DNA of 64,000 nucleotides from Escherichia phage MN04: sequence record MT129654.1; one strand, given 5' to 3'. Position 1 is the first letter of the stretch, and every line of letters begins with the position of its first letter. The notes under the pieces are model-generated. The model saw only the letters and a list, made by a program, of their open reading frames with translations. It was not told the DNA's origin and ran no database searches. The translations under genes were made by a program, and so were the position numbers. Shown here in pieces: positions 1,647 through 63,299 of the stretch.

Positions 1647-2926
1647 TTTTTATCCAATGGAGGAAGTTTTACACCAAGATAAGAACTCAATTGACTTTGA
1701 TTAGCCATTTTGTCCATATCCGCACCATCAATAATACGAGCTTCTTTGTCGTCTTTAGCGACGGTATAAGGATTCGCAGTCAATGCATACCGAGCCAATA
1801 AAGATATGGTAGGTTGCAATGAATCCGGGTCTACAATAACCTTGAATTCACCTACTGAAGTATCACCTTCATCATCAACCTCTTCGAGCCCTTCCGTATA
1901 AGGCGCATAATACAAAGATGCGACCGTCTGCCCTTCACCCATCTGAGCATTTACACCGACAATAACATAATCACACGGGCTATTCATATCAGCATAAAGT
2001 GGTAGACCGTTCTTTAATACGCCATAAGCTAATTCGTCTTGGTCTTCTTTTTTCTCAACCCAACCGGATGCAGCTAAAATAGCAGCGCAGCGAGAAGAAG
2101 CTACTGCATAAGTACCTGCAAACGAAGTCTGGCGTTGAACAGCAGAATTCATTTCACACATATAGTAATACAAGGTACGTGCTCGGTCTTGGGCGTTATC
2201 GTATTGTGGGTCTGTTAAGTTCAAGACACCTTTCTCAGAAACTCCTTGGACTTTAAAACGAGAACTTACCGTAATTAAGGACTGTAATACGTCTTTATTA
2301 ATTTCTTCAGCCATTTGAATAGCCAAAATATTGTCTATAAAGTCCGGTGCATTAAACCCGTTGGATTCTAAATCCTGGGCCAGTTCCACAGTCAAAGAAG
2401 TTTTAAGTTTACGCGATTTAACTTCAGTCTGCCACTTATCAATACGGAACCCTGCTTCAGCAATCTCAGGATGACCTTTTTCAAATTTATTGGTAAAGGC
2501 TGCATCAGACATCATACGAATATGGCCCGCGGCAATAGCTTCTGAAATAACTTCACTCAAATCGGTTTCAGTTGTTCCTGCAAACGGAGAAGCTTCTAAT
2601 ACCTTGAAAACCACACTTTCGAATTGGAACATATCGCCAACAGCATATGCTTCGTCTTTATCGGTGAACTCAGGAATGTTTTTACGTTCGAACATACCAA
2701 TTTCGCCTGCAAAAGTGGCTCCGCCGAGATAAGTCATTTTATCGTCTGGGTTTAAAACACGGACACCATATAATGCTGCAACAGGTTGAGTAGTTTTTTG
2801 TTCAGCAACAAGGGCTTTAAAAATTCTTTTATTAGTTGCCTGGGTATATGAAAGAAGATTAGGACGGGCGACCTGGTTGGCCGCCGTCAAAGTTGATTCT
2901 TGTATTAATGCATTAATCTTTTTCAT
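1643..2926 (-). CDS. gp24: Head vertex protein gp24, divergent second paralog
   Basis: 427 aa; clearly paralogous to adjacent gp24 (shared KSRKLKT, ELAQD, NKDVLQSLITVS, NPYTVAKDDKEAR); start ATG abuts upstream stop (TAAATG). Confidence 0.8.
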   Translation of the reverse strand: MKKINALIQESTLTAANQVARPNLLSYTQATNKRIFKALVAEQKTTQPVAALYGVRVLNPDDKMTYLGGATFAGEIGMFERKNIPEFTDKDEAYAVGDMFQFESVVFKVLEASPFAGTTETDLSEVISEAIAAGHIRMMSDAAFTNKFEKGHPEIAEAGFRIDKWQTEVKSRKLKTSLTVELAQDLESNGFNAPDFIDNILAIQMAEEINKDVLQSLITVSSRFKVQGVSEKGVLNLTDPQYDNAQDRARTLYYYMCEMNSAVQRQTSFAGTYAVASSRCAAILAASGWVEKKEDQDELAYGVLKNGLPLYADMNSPCDYVIVGVNAQMGEGQTVASLYYAPYTEGLEEVDDEGDTSVGEFKVIVDPDSLQPTISLLARYALTANPYTVAKDDKEARIIDGADMDKMANQSQLSSYLGVKLPPLDKN

Positions 2927-4588: not shown

Positions 4589-4610
4589 ATGGGAGACCGA
4601 AGTCTCCCAT
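4589..4610. terminator. Bidirectional terminator hairpin (ATGGGAGAC-CGAA-GTCTCCCAT)
   Basis: 9-bp stem between stop of ORF 4309-4575 and stop of gp23. Confidence 0.55.
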
Positions 4611-7686: not shown

Positions 7687-8114
7687 TAGTTAAGTCCAAA
7701 GGCTTTACGTTTAGAACGAGCTTTCTTACGCTTACGTTCAGCACGTACTTGAGTAGACGGGTTAGCACGTTTGGTTTTAGATGCTTTGCGAGCAATCTGA
7801 CGGCGTTTTGCTTTAGACAACCCAGTCGTTTGATAAGCGTTGCGTTGACGGGTTTTAATATCTTTAGTACGAGTAAGCTCACCTTTAGAAGAGACGTGCT
7901 TAACGATAAATTCGTTAAGAGCCATATTTTCATTCAAAGAGGCGATGGCAATAGCTGTATCGATATCACCATCAGCAATCATGTTCTCTACAAGATTATT
8001 TATATCGCTTTTCTCGAGGGCTTCAGAAAGAGTAGCAAAACGTCCCTGTGCTTCTGGAATTTTGGCCTCTACGCTTTCTAGAGTTAATTCGTAATCATCA
8101 GGGATAAGGAACAT
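7686..8114 (-). CDS. gp68: Prohead core protein gp68
   Basis: 142 aa; T4 order 20-67-68-21; basic C-terminus. Confidence 0.65.
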
Positions 8115-8389
8115 TATTCGTCGTCCTCGTCGTCTTCATCATCGTCATCACCTTCATCCGCATCGTCAGATTCTTTTTTGTCTTTCTTATCTGCTTTATC
8201 GGATTTTTCGTCTTTATCTTCGTCTTCGTCATCTTCGTCGGCTTCTTCGCCTTCAATCATAACGGAGCGAGCAATTTCTGCTTTACGGGCTTCAATCAAA
8301 GCGGCTACTCGAGATTCGATAAGCGGGCCTGCTGCTTTACGAACTGCTACGAGGTCGTTTGATTTAATAGCTTCGATTAAATCTTCCAT
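8114..8389 (-). CDS. gp67: Prohead core protein gp67
   Basis: 91 aa with poly-acidic Asp/Glu tail; T4 synteny. Confidence 0.65.
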
Positions 8390-9963
8390 TAGAAATCCTC
8401 TTCTTCTTCATCTGGGTTTTGGAAACGAGCCTCTTTAGACTCTTCTTCAATTTGCTTAGCTTCTTGATTAATTTCTTCGTCAGTCATCTGAAGGAAATCT
8501 TTCATAGCCGTTTGATGTGAAATATACTTACCAATAAATGGTTCAGCCATCGTTAGCATATTGATTCTGCGTTCCATGATTTCCGCATCTTTCATTTCAC
8601 TGAAATAGCTATCACGGTTGAACGTAACTTTAATATTATTTATTTCTCTTTCCCACTCATCTTCTGTAATAATCTTTTTAAGAATGAGGTTTGTTTTTAA
8701 TGGGTCTAAGAAAATTTCTTCAAATTTATTTTGGAGCTGTCGAATCCATTTAGCAAATTTCAACTCATCGCGGGTGATTGCTGTACCAGCATCAAACATA
8801 ACACCGGAATTAGATTCACTAGGGATACGTGACTCTGGGATACGCAGCGCACGATAAAGTGCTGTGCGGAAATAAAGAACGTCATCCATATCACTCATAC
8901 CTGTGGCACCAGGCATGGTATCAACTTCTGTTACCGCTTTACCGTCTCGACGTTGCAACCAATAGTCTTCGGTCATTGACATATTATGTTGCTGGTTTTT
9001 AATTTTACCGGTCGAAGCATCATATACCACACGGTTTTTCATCGTGTTCATGATATGTTGCATTTGTGCTGCAGCCTTACGTGAAGGCATATTACCTGTA
9101 TCGATATAAAACACACGACGGTCGGGAGCACGTGTAATACGGTAGATGACCATTGCGTCTTCCATCAATTTAAGCTGGTTTGCAGGCTTAATAGCACGTT
9201 GCAAATAGCCAATGATGTTTTTACCACAACAATCTAATAATCCAGAATGTGCATAAACTACAGCAGCACGAGGAATTTTAACTTTAGTCCCAGCTGAATA
9301 AATGCGTCCGTCAGCACAATAACTTTCATGACCAGTATCGTAAACGAAAAACTCGCGGTACCCATCTACAATTTTAACACCATCTTCCATACGTGTAACA
9401 ATTTCACGAATATATTGGACTTGGCGCGGGTCTAAGCGTCGAAGCTCTTGTACGCCATCTTTCATTTTTTTAGGGTTTATAATTTTATGAAAGAATATTC
9501 TTGAGTCTACATACCAACGTTGGAAATGGTCGGTGCCTTTACGTTGGAAATTTAAAAGATTCAAAACTTCACTAAATTCAGCCAAAATTTTATCTTTAAT
9601 TGATTGACTGAAATCTGTCCCGTCTAAATTTAATGCAACTACTTCTTTATCATCCTCGTAGACAATAGCGTCAGACACAATTTCTTGAACTGCGTTATCG
9701 ACTTCATAGTTGTTCATCAAATTACGGTAGGTATCAATGAGTTCCCTGGTGTTTTTAACTTCAGGCTCATTACTACCAAACATTTGTTGCATAAGAGCGT
9801 TATAAGGAATATTTTGCTCTTGGGTTTCAATTTCGCGAGCGCCATCATCAAGCTTAGGTGCAGTGACAGACTCTAAATTGTTATTAATTTGTTGTTTATA
9901 TTCTTTTTCGTCTTCATTAGCCCATGGCTTAAGAAAACTTAATATTGTATTAAAGTTTGCCAT
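8389..9963 (-). CDS. gp20: Portal vertex protein gp20
   Basis: 524 aa, same length as T4 gp20; synteny. Confidence 0.9.
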
Positions 9964-10011
9964 TAGAGTCTCCGATGAATGGGATAAGGAGCCGAAGCTC
10001 CTTTATAATTC

Positions 10012-10019
10012 TATTTATA
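10012..10019 (-). promoter_or_regulatory. Late promoter TATAAATA for gp20
   Basis: TATAAATA on minus strand just after gp19 stop; GGAGC-CGAA-GCTCC hairpin in 5' leader. Confidence 0.55.
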
Positions 10020-10020
10020 C

Positions 10021-10524
10021 TCATTCCCACCAATCGATAGCGAACGTAGATTCGAAAGTTTCTACCTCGTTGTTTGAATCCCAATCCATCTGGACTTCAC
10101 CAACGTTAGTAGGCCATAAGCCATAAATTGTAACTTCTTTAGTCACAGTCTTACCGTCACGATGGAACTGACGAACAACTGCTTGTTTCTTATATTCTGC
10201 AGGTGCAGCACCTGTAATTTCATTGGTCATACCATGGCAGAGGTTTTGCCAATCAACAATTGCCTGACGGGTGTCATGGGCGTCATCGTTATAAATGGTA
10301 ATGGTCCAATCATCAAATGTACGGTCACCAGCTACGTTAATTTTACGGTTCATGTAGCCAACCGGTACTTTTTCTACAATGCCTGCCGGCATAGGTGCTG
10401 CTTTACATTTAAAGCTAAAGTTTTTACCAAGAAATGGAATTTCCACTTCGAAAAGGTTAGGGCGTGCAAAGTCACCTGACTCAAACGCACGAGTGATATC
10501 TGTCAACTCCATGGGATGCCTCAT
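10021..10524 (-). CDS. gp19: Tail tube protein gp19
   Basis: 167 aa; T4 synteny between 18 and 20. Confidence 0.85.
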   Translation of the reverse strand: MRHPMELTDITRAFESGDFARPNLFEVEIPFLGKNFSFKCKAAPMPAGIVEKVPVGYMNRKINVAGDRTFDDWTITIYNDDAHDTRQAIVDWQNLCHGMTNEITGAAPAEYKKQAVVRQFHRDGKTVTKEVTIYGLWPTNVGEVQMDWDSNNEVETFESTFAIDWWE

Positions 10525-10564
10525 AAGTCAGTTCCTGGCCACACCAGGAACGTTCTGATTAATT

Positions 10565-10572
10565 TATTTATA
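10565..10572 (-). promoter_or_regulatory. Late promoter TATAAATA for gp19
   Basis: TATAAATA on minus strand about 40 nt upstream of gp19 ATG; leader hairpin 10531-10551 overlaps RBS. Confidence 0.55.
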
Positions 10573-10634
10573 ACAGTTGATAAATCATATTCCTGATAGT
10601 TAATCAATCCCAGGCGCAATTCTACGTGATGTAC

Positions 10635-10673
10635 GCTGTAACCAAACACATGGTATAATGGTTTTAGGTTCTT
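10635..10673 (+). promoter_or_regulatory. MotA-box middle-promoter-like element oriented antisense to gene 18
   Basis: GCTGTA box, 13-bp spacer, TATAAT 10654-10659, then GGTTTTAGGTTCTT matching the 14-mer after two other middle promoters. Confidence 0.4.
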
Positions 10674-10697
10674 TATATTACAGCCTGGGATAATAGA

Positions 10698-12680
10698 TTA
10701 TACTAAAGGTCCAATCAATTCATCAAAATCAGCACCAGTGCTCGTTGCAACGAAGTTCAACGTGATGTAATTTATCGATCTCGCAGGTTTGATGTATATA
10801 TTAGCAATAAACTCATTACGGTCGATAACCGCAGGGGTGTTCACTGTAGTATCACAAACCACACGTCCTTCATAAATCCCACCAAGTGCCTTAATACCGT
10901 CTAAGTACTGAGAAACTTCCATACGGAAGCTTGAACGAGTGAAGTTATCGTTCAATTCAAACAGTTTATATTTAGAGGCATCACCGATATTTTTCTTAAG
11001 CATGTTGAACAGACGGCGAACGTTAATGTGGTCCATCGGAGATGGAACTTTAGTTGCAGTCTTATCACCAAACAATACGAAACCATCACCGCCAGCAAAA
11101 CCAACAACCGGGTTAATAGCTTCCTGGTACATGCGGTCACGTTGTGCTTGACGTGGTTCAATTGCCAATTTCAGAACGTTAAGAATCTGACCACGGTTAT
11201 AACCGGCAGGAGACATCCAAGGCTGAGACACATCATCAGTACGTGCACACAAACCAGCCAAATCAGCAGCCAGTGGTACCCAACGGTTTACGTCGTTATA
11301 TTTGTCGTATTGATATTTATAGTTACCATCAATAGCGGCATAAGTGGTACTGATGTTCATGTTGTTGGCATCGAAAGTACCGGCACCGGTACGCCAGTCG
11401 ATAAGGTTATCTACTGCACGAGTCAGTGGAACGTTAACCAACAGACCTTTAGGAGGAGAAATAAATGCTAAGCAATCCTGACGTTCATCAGCAATACTCA
11501 CAACGTGTTTCTGAACAGTAGAAGCCACTTCATCGCCTTCACCAGCAACAGCACCAGCAATAAGCAGGTTAATATGGAGTGCTTCACGGTCGGCAAACAA
11601 ATCCCAACCCTGCATCAAATCGCCTGCAGTAACTTTATCGTTGGCGGAAATACCACCAGACAGATTAATGATACCACTAAATCCTTTCGGCCAGTTTAAC
11701 GAGGTAGCATAGATGTAATTAGAAGTACCTTTAGCGAAATAATCGTCAAGATAAATGTTATTACCGTAAACGTCTTTTTCACCTTCTTTGGTGGAAAGTA
11801 CGACTGATTCTACTATAGCGCCATCGCGACGAACGATAATTGCGTATTGGTCATCTGTTTGTGGGCCGTAATTAAATACTGCCTTGGCAATAGAAGCACG
11901 GGTACCGCCACCAGGATAAACATCCAACATTTTAGAAGAACCGGCTTCGTAAGCTGCTTTAGAAACGATTTCTACTTCCAGAGTAGAACCAATTTCACCA
12001 GGATAAAGGGCCACTACGCCTGGCATAGCAAATTTCTTAAGGGCCGCTTGGAATTCAAGAGAAGTAATAGCTTCTTCACTATTCTCGGCTTCTGTCAAAA
12101 GAATACCGGAATCCGTAACAATTTTACCTACGGTAATAGTACCAGAAACACCCGAAGAGGCGGAAGTAACTTCAGCAGTCCAAGCCGGGCCTAGGGTAGG
12201 ATACTGGTTTAAAGAACGTGCGTAAGCAATAATTTTTGCTGACGGAATAAACACAGAAAGAATTTTACCGTCTGTATCTACAGAAGTCACACGACCTTCA
12301 GATTCGACTACAGTTTGGTTATATTTAATATTAATTTTATCGCCTACAGCATAGTTGGAACCAGCCGTAGTAATAGTGGTTTCAATATTACCAGCGATAG
12401 GAGATGCGTTTTTAGCAAATTCGCGACTAACAACACGAACTGTACGAAGGTCATTACCATACTGGAGGAAGTTCATACCAGACATAAAGTAATCTGCTAC
12501 TTCGTTATTAGGACCTCCAAACAAATCAACCAGTTCAACTTCATTGGTAATCTGAGTTACCTGGAAAGCAGGGCCCCACTGGAATTTACCAACCAGCGCT
12601 GCACGACCCGTTGCGTTACGAACGACAGTACTCTGTACGGACGTTTCTTTGAGCTCAATGCCCGGTGATAATAAAGCCAT
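10698..12680 (-). CDS. gp18: Tail sheath protein gp18
   Basis: 660 aa (T4 gp18 is 659); synteny. Confidence 0.9.
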   Translation of the reverse strand: MALLSPGIELKETSVQSTVVRNATGRAALVGKFQWGPAFQVTQITNEVELVDLFGGPNNEVADYFMSGMNFLQYGNDLRTVRVVSREFAKNASPIAGNIETTITTAGSNYAVGDKINIKYNQTVVESEGRVTSVDTDGKILSVFIPSAKIIAYARSLNQYPTLGPAWTAEVTSASSGVSGTITVGKIVTDSGILLTEAENSEEAITSLEFQAALKKFAMPGVVALYPGEIGSTLEVEIVSKAAYEAGSSKMLDVYPGGGTRASIAKAVFNYGPQTDDQYAIIVRRDGAIVESVVLSTKEGEKDVYGNNIYLDDYFAKGTSNYIYATSLNWPKGFSGIINLSGGISANDKVTAGDLMQGWDLFADREALHINLLIAGAVAGEGDEVASTVQKHVVSIADERQDCLAFISPPKGLLVNVPLTRAVDNLIDWRTGAGTFDANNMNISTTYAAIDGNYKYQYDKYNDVNRWVPLAADLAGLCARTDDVSQPWMSPAGYNRGQILNVLKLAIEPRQAQRDRMYQEAINPVVGFAGGDGFVLFGDKTATKVPSPMDHINVRRLFNMLKKNIGDASKYKLFELNDNFTRSSFRMEVSQYLDGIKALGGIYEGRVVCDTTVNTPAVIDRNEFIANIYIKPARSINYITLNFVATSTGADFDELIGPLV

Positions 12681-12709
12681 TTTGAATCCTCTTGGTTATG
12701 CTTTATTGT

Positions 12710-15107
<2,398 letters not shown>

Positions 15108-15925
15108 TCTGCTTGTTCTACATCTCTTGGAACCACTTCGCTATCAACAGATTCAAAATTACCTTCAGGAGCGAGTTCCTTTGAGTTAGCAAAGAAATCA
15201 AGATAAATGGTTTTAATTTCGCCTTCCATTTCTTTAACTGGAGGATATAACCATCCGTTAACCTCAAACATCATAGACCATTCTAAACGTCGACGAGAAG
15301 TGGTATCACCTTCTAATTGTTCGTCCATTGCAATAGACTGGAATACAATACGAATATCACGGTCAAATTTAATTTCGTTTGTATAGAGTTCCGTAATGGT
15401 GGTATTGAAATGAGGTTGGAAATAAGGCATAATCTGTTCCACAATTTGGAACATATCATCTTGGGTTCTAGTGTAAATGCCCAGTTCGAAAATCATTTTT
15501 ACTGGAGTAGGAGAATATTGGCTAACCCGTTTACGAGGGTCGCCATTCTCAAATTGAATTTGTGTTCTGTTCTGAAGAGCTGTTTTGTATTGTGAGTTAT
15601 AAAGCATATCAACCATTTGAAGGTTCATACGTGGAAGAACTGTTTCCACCTTAGCCTTTTGTTCAGCTCGTTCTTTAGGAGACATATTAGGGTTTGGAAT
15701 ATTTTGAACGGCTGTCCATTTACCCAAATTTGCCATAAATCTTTCTTTAGAAGCATACGTAATAGGAACCTTAATAAATTTAAGTCCTGTATCTTCTCTT
15801 TGACGTGCTACTTGAACATGGGAAAATAAATCACCCATCAAAACAATATAGCGACGTAGCGAACTATTATACCAATGTCCAAACATCAAACCTCCTAAAA
15901 TGGCGCACCATGCGCCATGTATTAT

Positions 15926-17658: not shown

Positions 17659-17666
17659 TATTTATA
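17659..17666 (-). promoter_or_regulatory. Late promoter TATAAATA for gp13
   Basis: TATAAATA on minus strand about 22 nt upstream of gp13 ATG. Confidence 0.55.
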
Positions 17667-17670
17667 GCAA

Positions 17671-17690
17671 AAAAGGGCCGAAGCCCTTTT
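17671..17690. terminator. Terminator hairpin downstream of wac (GGGC-CGAA-GCCC flanked by A/T runs)
   Basis: AAAAGGGCCGAAGCCCTTTT palindrome. Confidence 0.55.
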
Positions 17691-24195: not shown

Positions 24196-24213
24196 AAGGG
24201 CCTTGCGGCCCTT
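24196..24213. terminator. Hairpin AAGGGCC-TTGC-GGCCCTT between gp8 and gp9
   Basis: 7-bp GC stem immediately after gp8 stop. Confidence 0.45.
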
Positions 24214-28307: not shown

Positions 28308-28334
28308 TAAATCTCCTTAAACCTCCGAAGAGGC

Positions 28335-49145: not shown

Positions 49146-49175
49146 TATAAATACCTCCTATAATCAGGAGGTATT

Positions 49176-49664
49176 ATGGATATTTTTGATATGTTACGTC
49201 AAGACGAAGGTCTTGATTTAAATCTTTATAAAGACACTGAAGGTTATTGGACTATTGGTATTGGCCAGTTAGTTACCAAGAACCCATCTAAAGATGTTGC
49301 TCGCGCTGAACTTGATAAGCTTATGGGCCGAGTTTGTAATGGTCGTATTACTATGGCTGAAGCTGAACAACTCTTTAATCGTTCAGTGGAAAATGCTCGT
49401 AGAGCTATAATGCGTAATCCTAAATTGAAACCGGTTTATGATGTGCTGGACGAAGTTCGTCGTTGCGCATTGATTAATATGGTCTTCCAAATGGGCGAAG
49501 CTGGTGTAGCAGGATTTACCAACTCTCTGCGTATGCTCCAACAGAAACGTTGGGATGATGCCGCAGTTAACCTGGCGCAGTCTCGTTGGTACAAGCAAAC
49601 CCCGAATCGTGCCAAGCGTGTTATCGCCACTTTTAAAACAGGTACTTGGGCTGCTTATAGATAA
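49176..49664 (+). CDS. e: Lysozyme (endolysin)
   Basis: 162 aa; '[30 protein letters not shown]...' near-collinear with T4 lysozyme. Confidence 0.95.
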
Positions 49665-55254: not shown

Positions 55255-55533
55255 ATGGACCTAAATTCAAAGATTTTAATTCTAGCGTTCGCTGTGGCCA
55301 TCTCTTATATTGTTCTTTTGCCCATCATGGATGATGCGGCTTACAAAAGAGAGATAGAAGTTGTAGCAGCGACGTATAATGCTAATAATAAAGAATGTCC
55401 TAATAAAAATGGAATGGATTTAATTAAAGCGCATTATATGCTTTCCATTACCTCGCCTATACAGAGGAATTGGGTTGAATATAATTTTAACGACGTGTTC
55501 TATTCTTATTGTCGTAAGCTTAAAAAGCTATAA
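55255..55533 (+). CDS. Small membrane protein (hypothetical)
   Basis: 92 aa; N-terminal TM helix. Confidence 0.45.
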   Translation: MDLNSKILILAFAVAISYIVLLPIMDDAAYKREIEVVAATYNANNKECPNKNGMDLIKAHYMLSITSPIQRNWVEYNFNDVFYSYCRKLKKL

Positions 55534-55626
55534 ATAGTAATACTAACCGTAGAGCTTTAGCTTTTGGTAATCGCTATCGGTTAAGGCCGAAAGGCAAATT
55601 CGTATAAAATAACAAAGGACTTTTGT

Positions 55627-62392: not shown

Positions 62393-62430
62393 GCTTTATA
62401 CCAAGGATGGTATAATGGTTCTAGGTTCTT
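62393..62430 (+). promoter_or_regulatory. MotA-dependent middle promoter candidate
   Basis: GCTTTA box, 12-bp spacer, TATAAT 62411-16, conserved GGTTCTAGGTTCTT downstream. Confidence 0.5.
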
Positions 62431-62453: not shown

Positions 62454-63299
62454 ATGTCACAAGCAATTAATCAAATTCGTTCTGAAGTTAAAAAAGTTGT
62501 TAAATTTGGTCGTATTCCGAGTTCTAAAGAAGTGGTTGAAAAGGTCCTATATATGATGTGGGACAAGTTCAACGTTTGTACTGTTAAAGATGACTTCACT
62601 AAAATCTTTGACAAGACTAAAGGTTCGTTTACGTTAGAAGACCGAGTCATGAAAACTCTTCGTAAAACAGGTATGTTGTCTCGTGCTAATGCCAAAATTA
62701 TTCTTAAAAATTATAACAAAGGCTACGACCTCTATGGTCGTTTAATCCCGGCGATGACATTTGATGAAGTTGTTAAAGACCTTAATACTAATCAACGTCG
62801 TCTACTGGCCCTTGGTGCTCGCCTTGCAAAAGGTCAAGATAAACAAATGACCTTTAAAACCAATGGTTCAGGCGATTGGATTATCTTTAATATTGTTAAC
62901 CATCCAAGAAATGAAAACGAGTATACTATTTCCCATTACAGTGGGTGTCAATATGACAACTGGAAGTTCCATCTCCGATTAGCCCTGTCTGAATTAGAAC
63001 AGCACGGTGTTCTTAGTTTTGGTGATGCTGAAACTGGAATGGGTCAGCGTATTAAACTTTATAAAATTAAAGACCTGGCTGAAGAGCATTCAGAACAAGC
63101 TCCTAAAATGGAACCTGTACCAGTGCGCAGCAATGAGAAACATCAAGCCCAGATTGAGTATTTTAGCAATTTGCTTACTTGCTTGAATGTTACAATCCAA
63201 CAACAAGATGATGAGATTTTCCGACTCTCTGGTCTGAATGCCAAAGCTAAGGCTGAACGCCAGAAATATATCGATATCCTAAATCTTCTTAAGGATTAA
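62454..63299 (+). CDS. Hypothetical protein
   Basis: 281 aa; GAGGAAATTATT RBS. Confidence 0.5.
   Translation: MSQAINQIRSEVKKVVKFGRIPSSKEVVEKVLYMMWDKFNVCTVKDDFTKIFDKTKGSFTLEDRVMKTLRKTGMLSRANAKIILKNYNKGYDLYGRLIPAMTFDEVVKDLNTNQRRLLALGARLAKGQDKQMTFKTNGSGDWIIFNIVNHPRNENEYTISHYSGCQYDNWKFHLRLALSELEQHGVLSFGDAETGMGQRIKLYKIKDLAEEHSEQAPKMEPVPVRSNEKHQAQIEYFSNLLTCLNVTIQQQDDEIFRLSGLNAKAKAERQKYIDILNLLKD

Follow-up and report, generated by a model that had tools for sequence, protein, structure and literature searches.

Conserved intergenic hairpins upstream of the tail tube and portal genes of a T4-type phage lie outside the ribosome-binding sites of both genes

Introduction

Do the stable hairpins in front of the tail tube and portal genes of a T4-type phage hold back translation, or do they act on the messenger RNA itself? 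We address this question in a 64,000-nt stretch of Escherichia phage MN04 (MT129654.1), here called the window. Its segment 9900-10750 shares 99.4% identity with Escherichia phage JS98, a Dhakavirus of the Tevenvirinae, and carries the junctions of genes 18, 19 and 20 (Table 1). A sequence-only reading of this DNA had placed one hairpin between the late promoter of gp19 and its ATG, with the ribosome-binding site of gp19 in its 3' arm, and a similar hairpin ahead of gp20. It had offered two kinds of function, namely RNA processing or stability and a translational attenuation that would tune the stoichiometry of tail tube and portal. We re-examined both spacers in the window and in a comparative set of 79 loci encoding gp19 relatives, together with annotated records.

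Table 1 Features of the gene 18-19-20 region and stem-supported CUUCGG motifs in the window.
Feature	Coordinates	Strand	Basis or remark
Gene 18, tail sheath	12680..10698	minus	Pfam and JS98 annotation
Gene 19, tail tube protein, 163 aa	10021..10512	minus	Pfam PF06841, PDB alignment, JS98 annotation
Gene 20, portal protein	8389..9963	minus	Pfam PF07230, E = 7e-193; JS98 annotation
Late promoter P19, TATAAATA	10565..10572	minus	Sequence; predicted transcription start A10559
Late promoter P20, TATAAATA	10012..10019	minus	Sequence; starts 1 nt past gp19 stop codon; predicted start A10006
Hairpin 1, GUUCCUGG-UGUGG-CCAGGAAC	10531..10551	minus	Perfect 8-bp inverted repeat
Hairpin 2, AAGGAGC-UUCG-GCUCCUU	9986..10003	minus	C(UUCG)G tetraloop, 7-bp stem
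Upstream in-frame ATG, polymorphic	10522..10524	minus	AAG in sister phages; not the conserved gp19 start
gp19 Shine-Dalgarno GAGG	10519..10522	minus	6 nt before ATG 10512; 9 nt 3' of hairpin 1 stem
gp20 Shine-Dalgarno GGAG	9970..9973	minus	6 nt 5' of ATG 9963; outside hairpin 2
Stem-supported CUUCGG motifs	42704, 56303, 58411	plus	All intergenic, sense orientation of local genes
Stem-supported CUUCGG motifs	28330, 17683, 9997, 4602	minus	All intergenic, sense orientation of local genes

Results

Two stable hairpins follow late promoters

Read on the mRNA strand, the 18-19 spacer consists of TATAAATA (10572..10565), AAUUAAUCAGAAC, hairpin 1 (10551..10531) and UGACUUAUGAGGCAUCCC, followed by AUGGAG. 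The 57-nt 19-20 spacer consists of G-TATAAATA, GAAUUAUA, hairpin 2 (10003..9986), AUCCCAUUCAUC, GGAG, ACUCUA and AUG. The late promoter proposed for gp19 is thus present on the minus strand, and a second one, P20, which had gone unmentioned, lies directly 5' of hairpin 2. T4 late promoters span positions -13 to -6 (PMC1524935), and by this rule transcription is predicted to start at A10559 from P19 and at A10006 from P20.

The inverted repeat of hairpin 1 is as it had been described. ViennaRNA adds a ninth G-C pair and folds it at -12.9 kcal/mol, an energy equalled by none of 200 shuffles of the 21-mer, with a loop of 3-5 nt that is not UUCG. Its 5' base lies 8 nt past the predicted P19 start and its 3' base some 18-19 nt before the gp19 AUG. 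The hairpin reported ahead of gp20 also exists (-10.0 kcal/mol, ViennaRNA), with six pairs beyond its closing C-G; the CGAA loop first given for it is the plus-strand sequence, and on the mRNA the loop is UUCG. Hairpin 2 begins 17 nt past the gp19 stop and 3 nt past the predicted P20 start, and its 3' base is located 22 nt before the gp20 AUG and about 12-13 nt before the gp20 GGAG.

The minimum free energy of the whole 19-20 spacer of the window is not significantly below that of shuffles (z = -1.3), and the contrast between sense and antisense energies is uninformative, given that the antisense spacer folds more stably through unrelated pairings (ViennaRNA). For these reasons we adopted the best local hairpin per spacer as the statistic: in each of the two whole spacers it is reached by only 1 of 150 dinucleotide shuffles. 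An Rfam cmscan of 8000-13000 at E <= 10 returned four chance-level matches, none of them at either hairpin.

We also considered whether a promoter-proximal hairpin is a general feature of late promoters, and rejected the idea. Only two of the eight intergenic minus-strand TATAAATA sites in the window, P19 and P20, are followed by a strong hairpin, so that a leader hairpin is no general rule here.

The ribosome-binding sites of genes 19 and 20 lie outside the stems

The proposal that hairpin 1 attenuates translation of the tail tube by sequestering the Shine-Dalgarno AGGAA, with hairpin 2 acting similarly on the portal gene, starts from the list of open reading frames, in which gp19 opens at its first available ATG, 10524 (167 aa, MRHPMELTD...). 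Within the 3' arm of hairpin 1, AGGAA precedes this codon by 7 nt (6 nt had been stated) and is buried, with a probability of being unpaired of 0.03 in our model of the P19 transcript. Moreover, the 167-aa ORF is the one annotated in AnYang and IME08, the only such cases among the records compared.

Sequence comparison, on the other hand, places the genuine gp19 start at ATG 10512 (163 aa, MELTD...). The codon at 10524 is ATG in the window, JS98, VR5, MX01, KIT01, AnYang and IME08, and AAG in five Dhakaviruses (L004, L006, L008, WG01 and ABTNLS3). Nucleotide homology with other genera sets in precisely at query position 239, equivalent to 10512, and relatives with a differing upstream sequence still open gp19 with ATGGA(G/A). 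Two solved 163-aa tail tube proteins align to the long ORF from its fifth or seventh residue (9ev2, residues 5-167; T4 gp19 5iv5, residues 7-167), and a 492-nt gene running from the position equivalent to 10512 is annotated in JS98, MX01, WG01, KIT01 and ABTNLS3.

This start is served by GAGG, which has ideal spacing, lies outside the stem and recurs as (A/U)GAGG in every Dhakavirus examined, the Tegunavirus form being AAGAGG. In the P19 transcript model the mean probability of being unpaired is 0.32 for GAGG and 0.96 for the AUG, and AGGAA stands 19 nt away from ATG 10512. The claim that hairpin 1 sequesters the gp19 ribosome-binding site fails because GAGG and AUG 10512 both fall 3' of the stem. 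AGGAA could serve only the non-conserved ATG 10524, and hairpin 1 would at most silence a spurious, polymorphic upstream AUG.

The same holds for the portal gene: a gap of 12 nt separates hairpin 2 from the gp20 GGAG, where GGAGACTCTAATG shows no variation in the alignment of 19-20 spacers. Neither hairpin masks the Shine-Dalgarno or the AUG of the genuine start codons. Both late promoters are furthermore located 5' of the whole hairpins, unlike those of T4 e, soc and I-TevI (PMC3014915). Taken together, these data make sequestration of either ribosome-binding site very improbable.

A weak second hairpin predicted over the gp19 Shine-Dalgarno and AUG was considered and discarded; it is low in the ensemble and is broken by the AUG/AAG polymorphism. 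A hairpin that does mask a ribosome-binding site is found elsewhere in the same window, at gene e (49146-49171).

The hairpins are conserved as sense-strand RNA structures

A stable hairpin occupies the 19-20 spacer in almost every T4-type lineage, with a UUCG, GAAA, GCAA or UACG loop, except in the most distant lineages, which are cyanophage-like, and in genomes where this spacer has received an endonuclease gene. Folding of 55 distinct 19-20 spacers gave a median z-score of -2.5; for 31 spacers, five or fewer of 200 shuffles do as well. The stem of hairpin 2 varies among its homologues in a compensatory manner, as in AAGGAGC/GCUCCUU, AUGAGGC/GCCUCAU, AUGGGAG/CUCCCAU and GGGCC/GGCCC.

Within Dhakavirus the stem of hairpin 1 is invariant and the loop reads UGUGG, UGUGU or, in ABTNLS3, the flipped ACACA. 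Homologues built round an invariant CUGG are present in Tegunavirus (GGUUCCUGG-CUUA-CUAGGAAUC, with two G-U pairs), in a group of Cronobacter and Enterobacter phages (GCCGUUCUGG-UGAAU-CAGAACGGU, with a variant in which U-A is swapped for C-G) and in the STML-198 and Citrobacter CF1 groups. Two pattern scans of IMG/VR for further Dhakavirus or Tegunavirus leaders yielded no genomes beyond the comparative set. The motif YCTGGTG was examined as a possible repeated element and dismissed, since 17 of its 18 occurrences in the window have no flanking inverted repeat and lie away from the spacer hairpins; nor is it Chi, which is GCTGGTGG.

MAFFT shifted the stem by 1 nt both in the promoter-to-ATG alignment with Tegunavirus and in the alignment of full 19-20 spacers, and we therefore used shorter, hairpin-centred alignments. 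The sequences in these covariation alignments (A3, A4) were picked for having a hairpin in the syntenic spacer, so that the following scores are somewhat inflated: in a sequence-only alignment of 11 UUCG-loop versions of hairpin 2, double compensatory changes are seen at seven of eight pairs and the paired share of cells is 95.5%, versus 27-50% when the 3' partner is slid, while for hairpin 1 there are compensatory changes at five of ten pairs and the paired share is 86%, versus 28-47%. G-U pairs occur in the Tegunavirus homologue of hairpin 1 and in several alignment columns. On the opposite strand they would be C-A mismatches, indicating that the selected structure is the sense-strand RNA.

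This strand specificity bears on a possible role at the DNA level, in which the palindromes would be junctions for recombination or homing endonucleases, or terminators of the antisense strand. Such a role would fit the homing-endonuclease cassettes that in relatives replace exactly the segment made of promoter and hairpin 1, the inverted loop of hairpin 1 in one relative, which amounts to a palindrome event in DNA, and a terminator scan that flags the plus-strand version of hairpin 1. Sense RNA is favoured instead by the G-U pairs and by UUCG loops that are strictly sense-oriented; the plus-strand tail of hairpin 1 is a marginal U-run, and an endonuclease insertion 5' of gene 20 spares hairpin 2. 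We consider a function in DNA highly unlikely.

Late promoters change sides while the hairpins stay in the spacers

We compared the order of promoter and hairpin across lineages. In the 19-20 spacer the promoter precedes the hairpin with a constant gap of 8 nt in Dhakavirus, Kanagawavirus, PEi20 (L010) and VR20 (L017); the hairpin precedes the promoter in T4-type loci (L042, L023, L026, L036 and L041); the promoter lies within the hairpin loop in four loci (L030, L037, L039 and L043); and the predicted start falls inside the 5' arm in L045-L052. In the 18-19 spacer the hairpin adjoins the promoter on its upstream side in most lineages, and a downstream hairpin is found in Dhakavirus, Tegunavirus, VR20-type phages and T4, where it is the second hairpin. 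All arrangements have just one property in common, namely formation of the hairpin on read-through RNA from the upstream gene. In most of them the 3' end of the hairpin is found 13-26 nt before the next AUG.

These arrangements allow us to weigh the possibility that the hairpins chiefly stabilise the 5' ends of the P19 and P20 transcripts by blocking 5'-end-dependent RNase E/G, as in the leaders of T4 gene 32 and ompA. Both hairpins in the window do lie just 3' of TATAAATA, and the 8-nt gap between promoter and stem is kept in four alignable lineages with differing stems (the window, ZX14, L010 and L017), although descent alone may account for the shared spacing. There is also a precedent in T4, where a 5' CUUCGG hairpin in the leader of gene 32 gives mRNA stability (Gorski et al. 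1985, via PMC8948821).

The distances from the predicted starts differ between the two hairpins, with 3 unpaired 5' nucleotides for hairpin 2 and 8 for hairpin 1. Emory, Bouvet and Belasco reportedly found in 1992 that a 5'-stabilising stem-loop needs about 4 or fewer of them. The T4 gene 19 leader hairpin is still more remote, about 27 nt from its predicted start. In addition, many genera have the equivalent hairpin 5' of the promoter, wrapped round it or cut short by the predicted start, and in none of these positions could it occupy the 5' end of the transcript concerned. Stabilisation of promoter-proximal 5' ends is therefore unlikely as the chief role of the hairpins, even though it deserves more credit than the other alternatives.

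Relatives carrying an endonuclease gene provide natural deletions. In Bp7-type Dhakaviruses, as in several further lineages, promoter and hairpin 1 have given way to a homing-endonuclease ORF between genes 18 and 19, and only a GGAGG or GGAAA Shine-Dalgarno is left before gp19. Hairpin 1 is consequently dispensable and not obligatory for control of gp19 translation, and any effect it has would be modulatory. Where the insertion is in the 19-20 spacer, TATAAATA and hairpin 2 are still intact before gene 20.

Similar hairpins recur between late genes, and the two studied here have no U-tract

The hexamer CTTCGG occurs 40 times in the 64-kb window, and seven occurrences, that of hairpin 2 among them, have at least five further stem pairs (Table 1). 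The remaining 33 have no supporting stem (two or fewer flanking complementary pairs) and are scattered on both strands. Among the ten late-region spacers of at least 15 nt that we scanned, six contain a hairpin of -7 kcal/mol or better (after gene 23, 19-20, 18-19, and at 15918, 17690 and 24213), and a seventh has at 28334 a short UUCG stem that does not reach this energy. The commonest order in these spacers is stop codon, hairpin, late promoter.

Some hairpins of the window are followed by a U-run and then a late promoter, for example 17690..17671. They raise the possibility that hairpins 1 and 2 are weak factor-independent terminators or pause sites, which would lower read-through from 18 to 19 and from 19 to 20 in keeping with copy numbers of 138:138:12. 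The two hairpins follow the stop codons of high-copy genes, the 19-20 hairpin bears a U-run in some relatives (L036), and a 19-to-20 terminator was predicted by TransTerm in RB49 (PMC1524935 supplement). The sense-strand tails in the window, CUGACUUAUG and AUCCCAUUCA, contain no U-tract, however, and a terminator scan of 9800-10800 found no terminator-like site on the minus strand. Of the five T4-type genomes analysed with TransTerm, RB49 is the only one with a 19-to-20 terminator, and neither an 18-to-19 nor a 19-to-20 terminator was called in RB69, RB43, 44RR or Aeh1. These results indicate that the hairpins are not classical terminators, and we regard even a weak terminating role as improbable.

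Discussion

Position, conservation and precedents in other phage messengers suggest that both hairpins are elements of mRNA punctuation and end protection which act mainly on polycistronic read-through RNA. We give this reading a probability of roughly 0.55. Of the two functions first put forward, the comparative evidence thus favours processing or stability, and lends no support to translational attenuation.

According to this reading, the hairpins would have their main effect in read-through transcripts of the upstream gene, where they would be structural barriers that delimit and shield RNA ends. They would block 3'-to-5' exonucleases, and perhaps pause the polymerase, behind the high-copy genes 18 and 19. 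After endonuclease cutting, the downstream segment would begin with a structured 5' end provided by the hairpin. By either route the mRNA amounts of sheath and tube versus portal could diverge. In this phage, as in a few related genera, the promoter lies upstream of the hairpin, so that hairpin 2 is also expected to form with only 3 nt between it and the 5' end of the P20 transcript, in an arrangement like that of 5'-terminal stabilisers such as the gene 32 leader hairpin, and it may additionally cap the late message of gene 20. An extra role of this kind is less likely for hairpin 1, which is 8 nt from the predicted P19 5' end. The literature that we reached holds no RNA-end or half-life data at these sites for this phage or for T4, and no Term-seq or start-site atlas of T4 was found.

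A more specific version would have hairpin 1 recognised or processed on read-through RNA, by a host RNase or by an RNA-binding protein of the phage, and would see in this site the control of the mRNA ratio of sheath and tube to portal; the swapped order of promoter and hairpin would in that case be a rewiring peculiar to some lineages, with 5'-end protection as the addition. What speaks for it is that at least five lineages keep, between genes 18 and 19, a homologous stem with an invariant CUGG at the junction of 5' arm and loop, while the late promoter has switched sides. We hold this version to be a long shot.

The analysis corrects the start codon of gp19, for which two GenBank Dhakavirus records have an ORF four codons longer, and it removes a tempting but wrong case of a riboregulator that sequesters a ribosome-binding site. 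It also offers a comparative picture of T4-type late operons, with stable tetraloop hairpins as conserved punctuation marks round which the late promoters slide. If end protection is indeed their function, it would help to explain the unequal output of tail and portal proteins from one late transcription programme, an increment to T4 biology.

Among known systems, the hairpins that sequester ribosome-binding sites in T4 e, soc, 49 and I-TevI (PMC3014915; PMC2988022) share with ours the nearness to a late promoter and to a translation start. There, the Shine-Dalgarno or the AUG is in the helix and the late start lies inside the hairpin, whereas here both signals are outside and the whole hairpin is transcribed. 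For T4 e, soc and I-TevI, late transcription starts at a point where the 5' arm is lost and the ribosome-binding site is freed (PMC3014915); our predicted starts, 10559 and 10006, lie 8 and 3 nt 5' of the stems, so late transcripts would keep the 5' arm. Another parallel is the seg43(25) hairpin of Aeromonas phage 25 (PMC2988022), which is likewise very stable and has its base just 5' of a ribosome-binding site without sequestering it, but which precedes a homing-endonuclease gene, while the hairpins described here precede structural genes.

The T4 gene 32 leader resembles the present case in having a stable hairpin 5' of the ribosome-binding site without overlap, and hairpin 2 would lie 3 nt from the predicted 5' end. 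That leader also has an RNase E site and the pseudoknot operator of gp32 autoregulation (PMC3014915), neither of which is seen here. With intrinsic terminators the hairpins share a G+C-rich stem after a stop codon, and they differ from them by the sense-strand U-tract, which follows neither hairpin.

Hairpins of the C(UUCG)G class are built on a flanking stem of 2-8 or more base pairs, are unusually thermostable and arrest reverse transcriptase. They were discovered in the intercistronic regions of T4 mRNA (Tuerk et al. 1988, via PMC4371310, PMC8948821), and CUUCGG hairpins are common between genes and especially abundant in T4-type phages (PMC8948821). Hairpin 2 shares the UUCG loop, the C-G closure, the stem and the intergenic sense position, and shows no essential difference from this class, its own particularity being that it lies directly 3' of a late promoter. 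Hairpin 1, with its UGUGG loop, is outside the C(UUCG)G class and counts only among intercistronic stem-loops in the wider sense. Both hairpins are ordinary additions to the class of T4 intergenic stem-loops known since 1988.

Start annotation and insertions around gene 19

Dhakavirus records disagree on where the tail tube protein gp19 begins (10510-10524 in the window, minus strand). A 167-residue gp19, starting at the polymorphic upstream ATG, is annotated in two records, MK234886 (AnYang) and NC_014260 (IME08), while the remaining Dhakavirus records use the ATG at 10512 (163 aa). Gene 20 of IME08 is also annotated longer, with a start that would fall within the 19-20 spacer.

Many relatives carry free-standing ORFs resembling homing endonucleases in the 18-19 spacer, the 19-20 spacer or both, and each inserted ORF is accompanied by its own late-promoter motif, TATAAATA, and a terminator-like hairpin upstream. 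Besides phage Bp7 (L002), where one of the inserted ORFs carries an HNH endonuclease annotation, such insertions occur at L005, L011, L015, L018, L024, L026, L030 and L037. The annotation of Bp7 splits the portal gene into two CDSs.

Elements within the 18-19 spacer

Hairpin 1, the hairpin of the 18-19 spacer, has the loop ACACA in Salmonella phage vB_SalD_ABTNLS3 (L096, about 205-225; equivalent to window 10539-10543), which is the exact reverse complement of the UGUGU of sister phages. The change is a small inversion within the palindrome. With the loop inverted and the stem kept, it shows the identity of the hairpin 1 loop to be unconstrained.

In the window, the same spacer contains an extended -10 element oriented antisense to the late genes, and a 24-nt block, ATGGTATAATGGTTnTAGGTTCTT, that recurs nearly identically just upstream of the plus-strand early ORF at 62454. 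By its sequence, the element looks like an early sigma-70-type promoter, which would be directed into the antisense of gene 18. L032/L033 and L017 have the same TGGTATAATG / TGTATAATGG in their 18-19 spacers. In the window, a long-range stem, CCCAGGC...GCCUGGG (about 10690..10607), encloses the element.

Features located in the window and in phage Bp7
Feature	Position	Strand	Remarks
UUCG hairpin with U-rich tail	4589-4610	-	intercistronic; 3' of gene 23
Extended -10 element CATGGTATAATGG	10649-10661 (TATAAT 10653-10658)	+	18-19 spacer; from sequence
Tetraloop hairpin adjoining AGGAGG Shine-Dalgarno	15900-15918	-	intercistronic
UUCG hairpin and U-run	17671-17690	-	intercistronic; then TATAAATA at 17666
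GCAA hairpin	24196-24213	-	intercistronic
Tetraloop hairpin	28308-28334	-	intercistronic
Three UUCG hairpins	42704, 56303, 58411	+	early region; intercistronic
Late-promoter motif TATAAATA	49146-49153	+	5' of lysozyme ORF; from sequence
Gene e hairpin CCUCCUAUAAUCAGGAGG	49154-49171	+	-8.1 kcal/mol; directly 3' of TATAAATA
Late-promoter motif TATAAATA	55529-55536	+	within early-strand gene block
Structured region downstream of late-promoter motif	55529-55600	+	TATAAATA, GCUUUAGCUUUUGGUAAUCGCUAUCGGUUAAGGC, GGCCGAAAGGC
Paralogue of block ATGGTATAATGGTTnTAGGTTCTT	62407-62430	+	just 5' of early ORF at 62454
Endonuclease-like ORF insertions	830-1501, 2098-2679		L002 (phage Bp7)

A sequestering hairpin at the lysozyme gene

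Within the early-strand gene block, the late-promoter motif at 55529-55536 is followed by an extended hairpin, GCUUUAGCUUUUGGUAAUCGCUAUCGGUUAAGGC (-12.1 kcal/mol), and then by GGCCGAAAGGC.

At the lysozyme ORF (ATG 49176, Pfam PF00959), the Shine-Dalgarno is the 3' arm of the gene e hairpin, and a late start predicted near 49159 would yield a late transcript lacking the 5' arm. Positions 49146-49178 (+) are the classical T4 gene e switch (PMC3014915), with a true RBS-sequestering hairpin; such sequestration is absent from hairpin 1 and from hairpin 2 of the 19-20 spacer.
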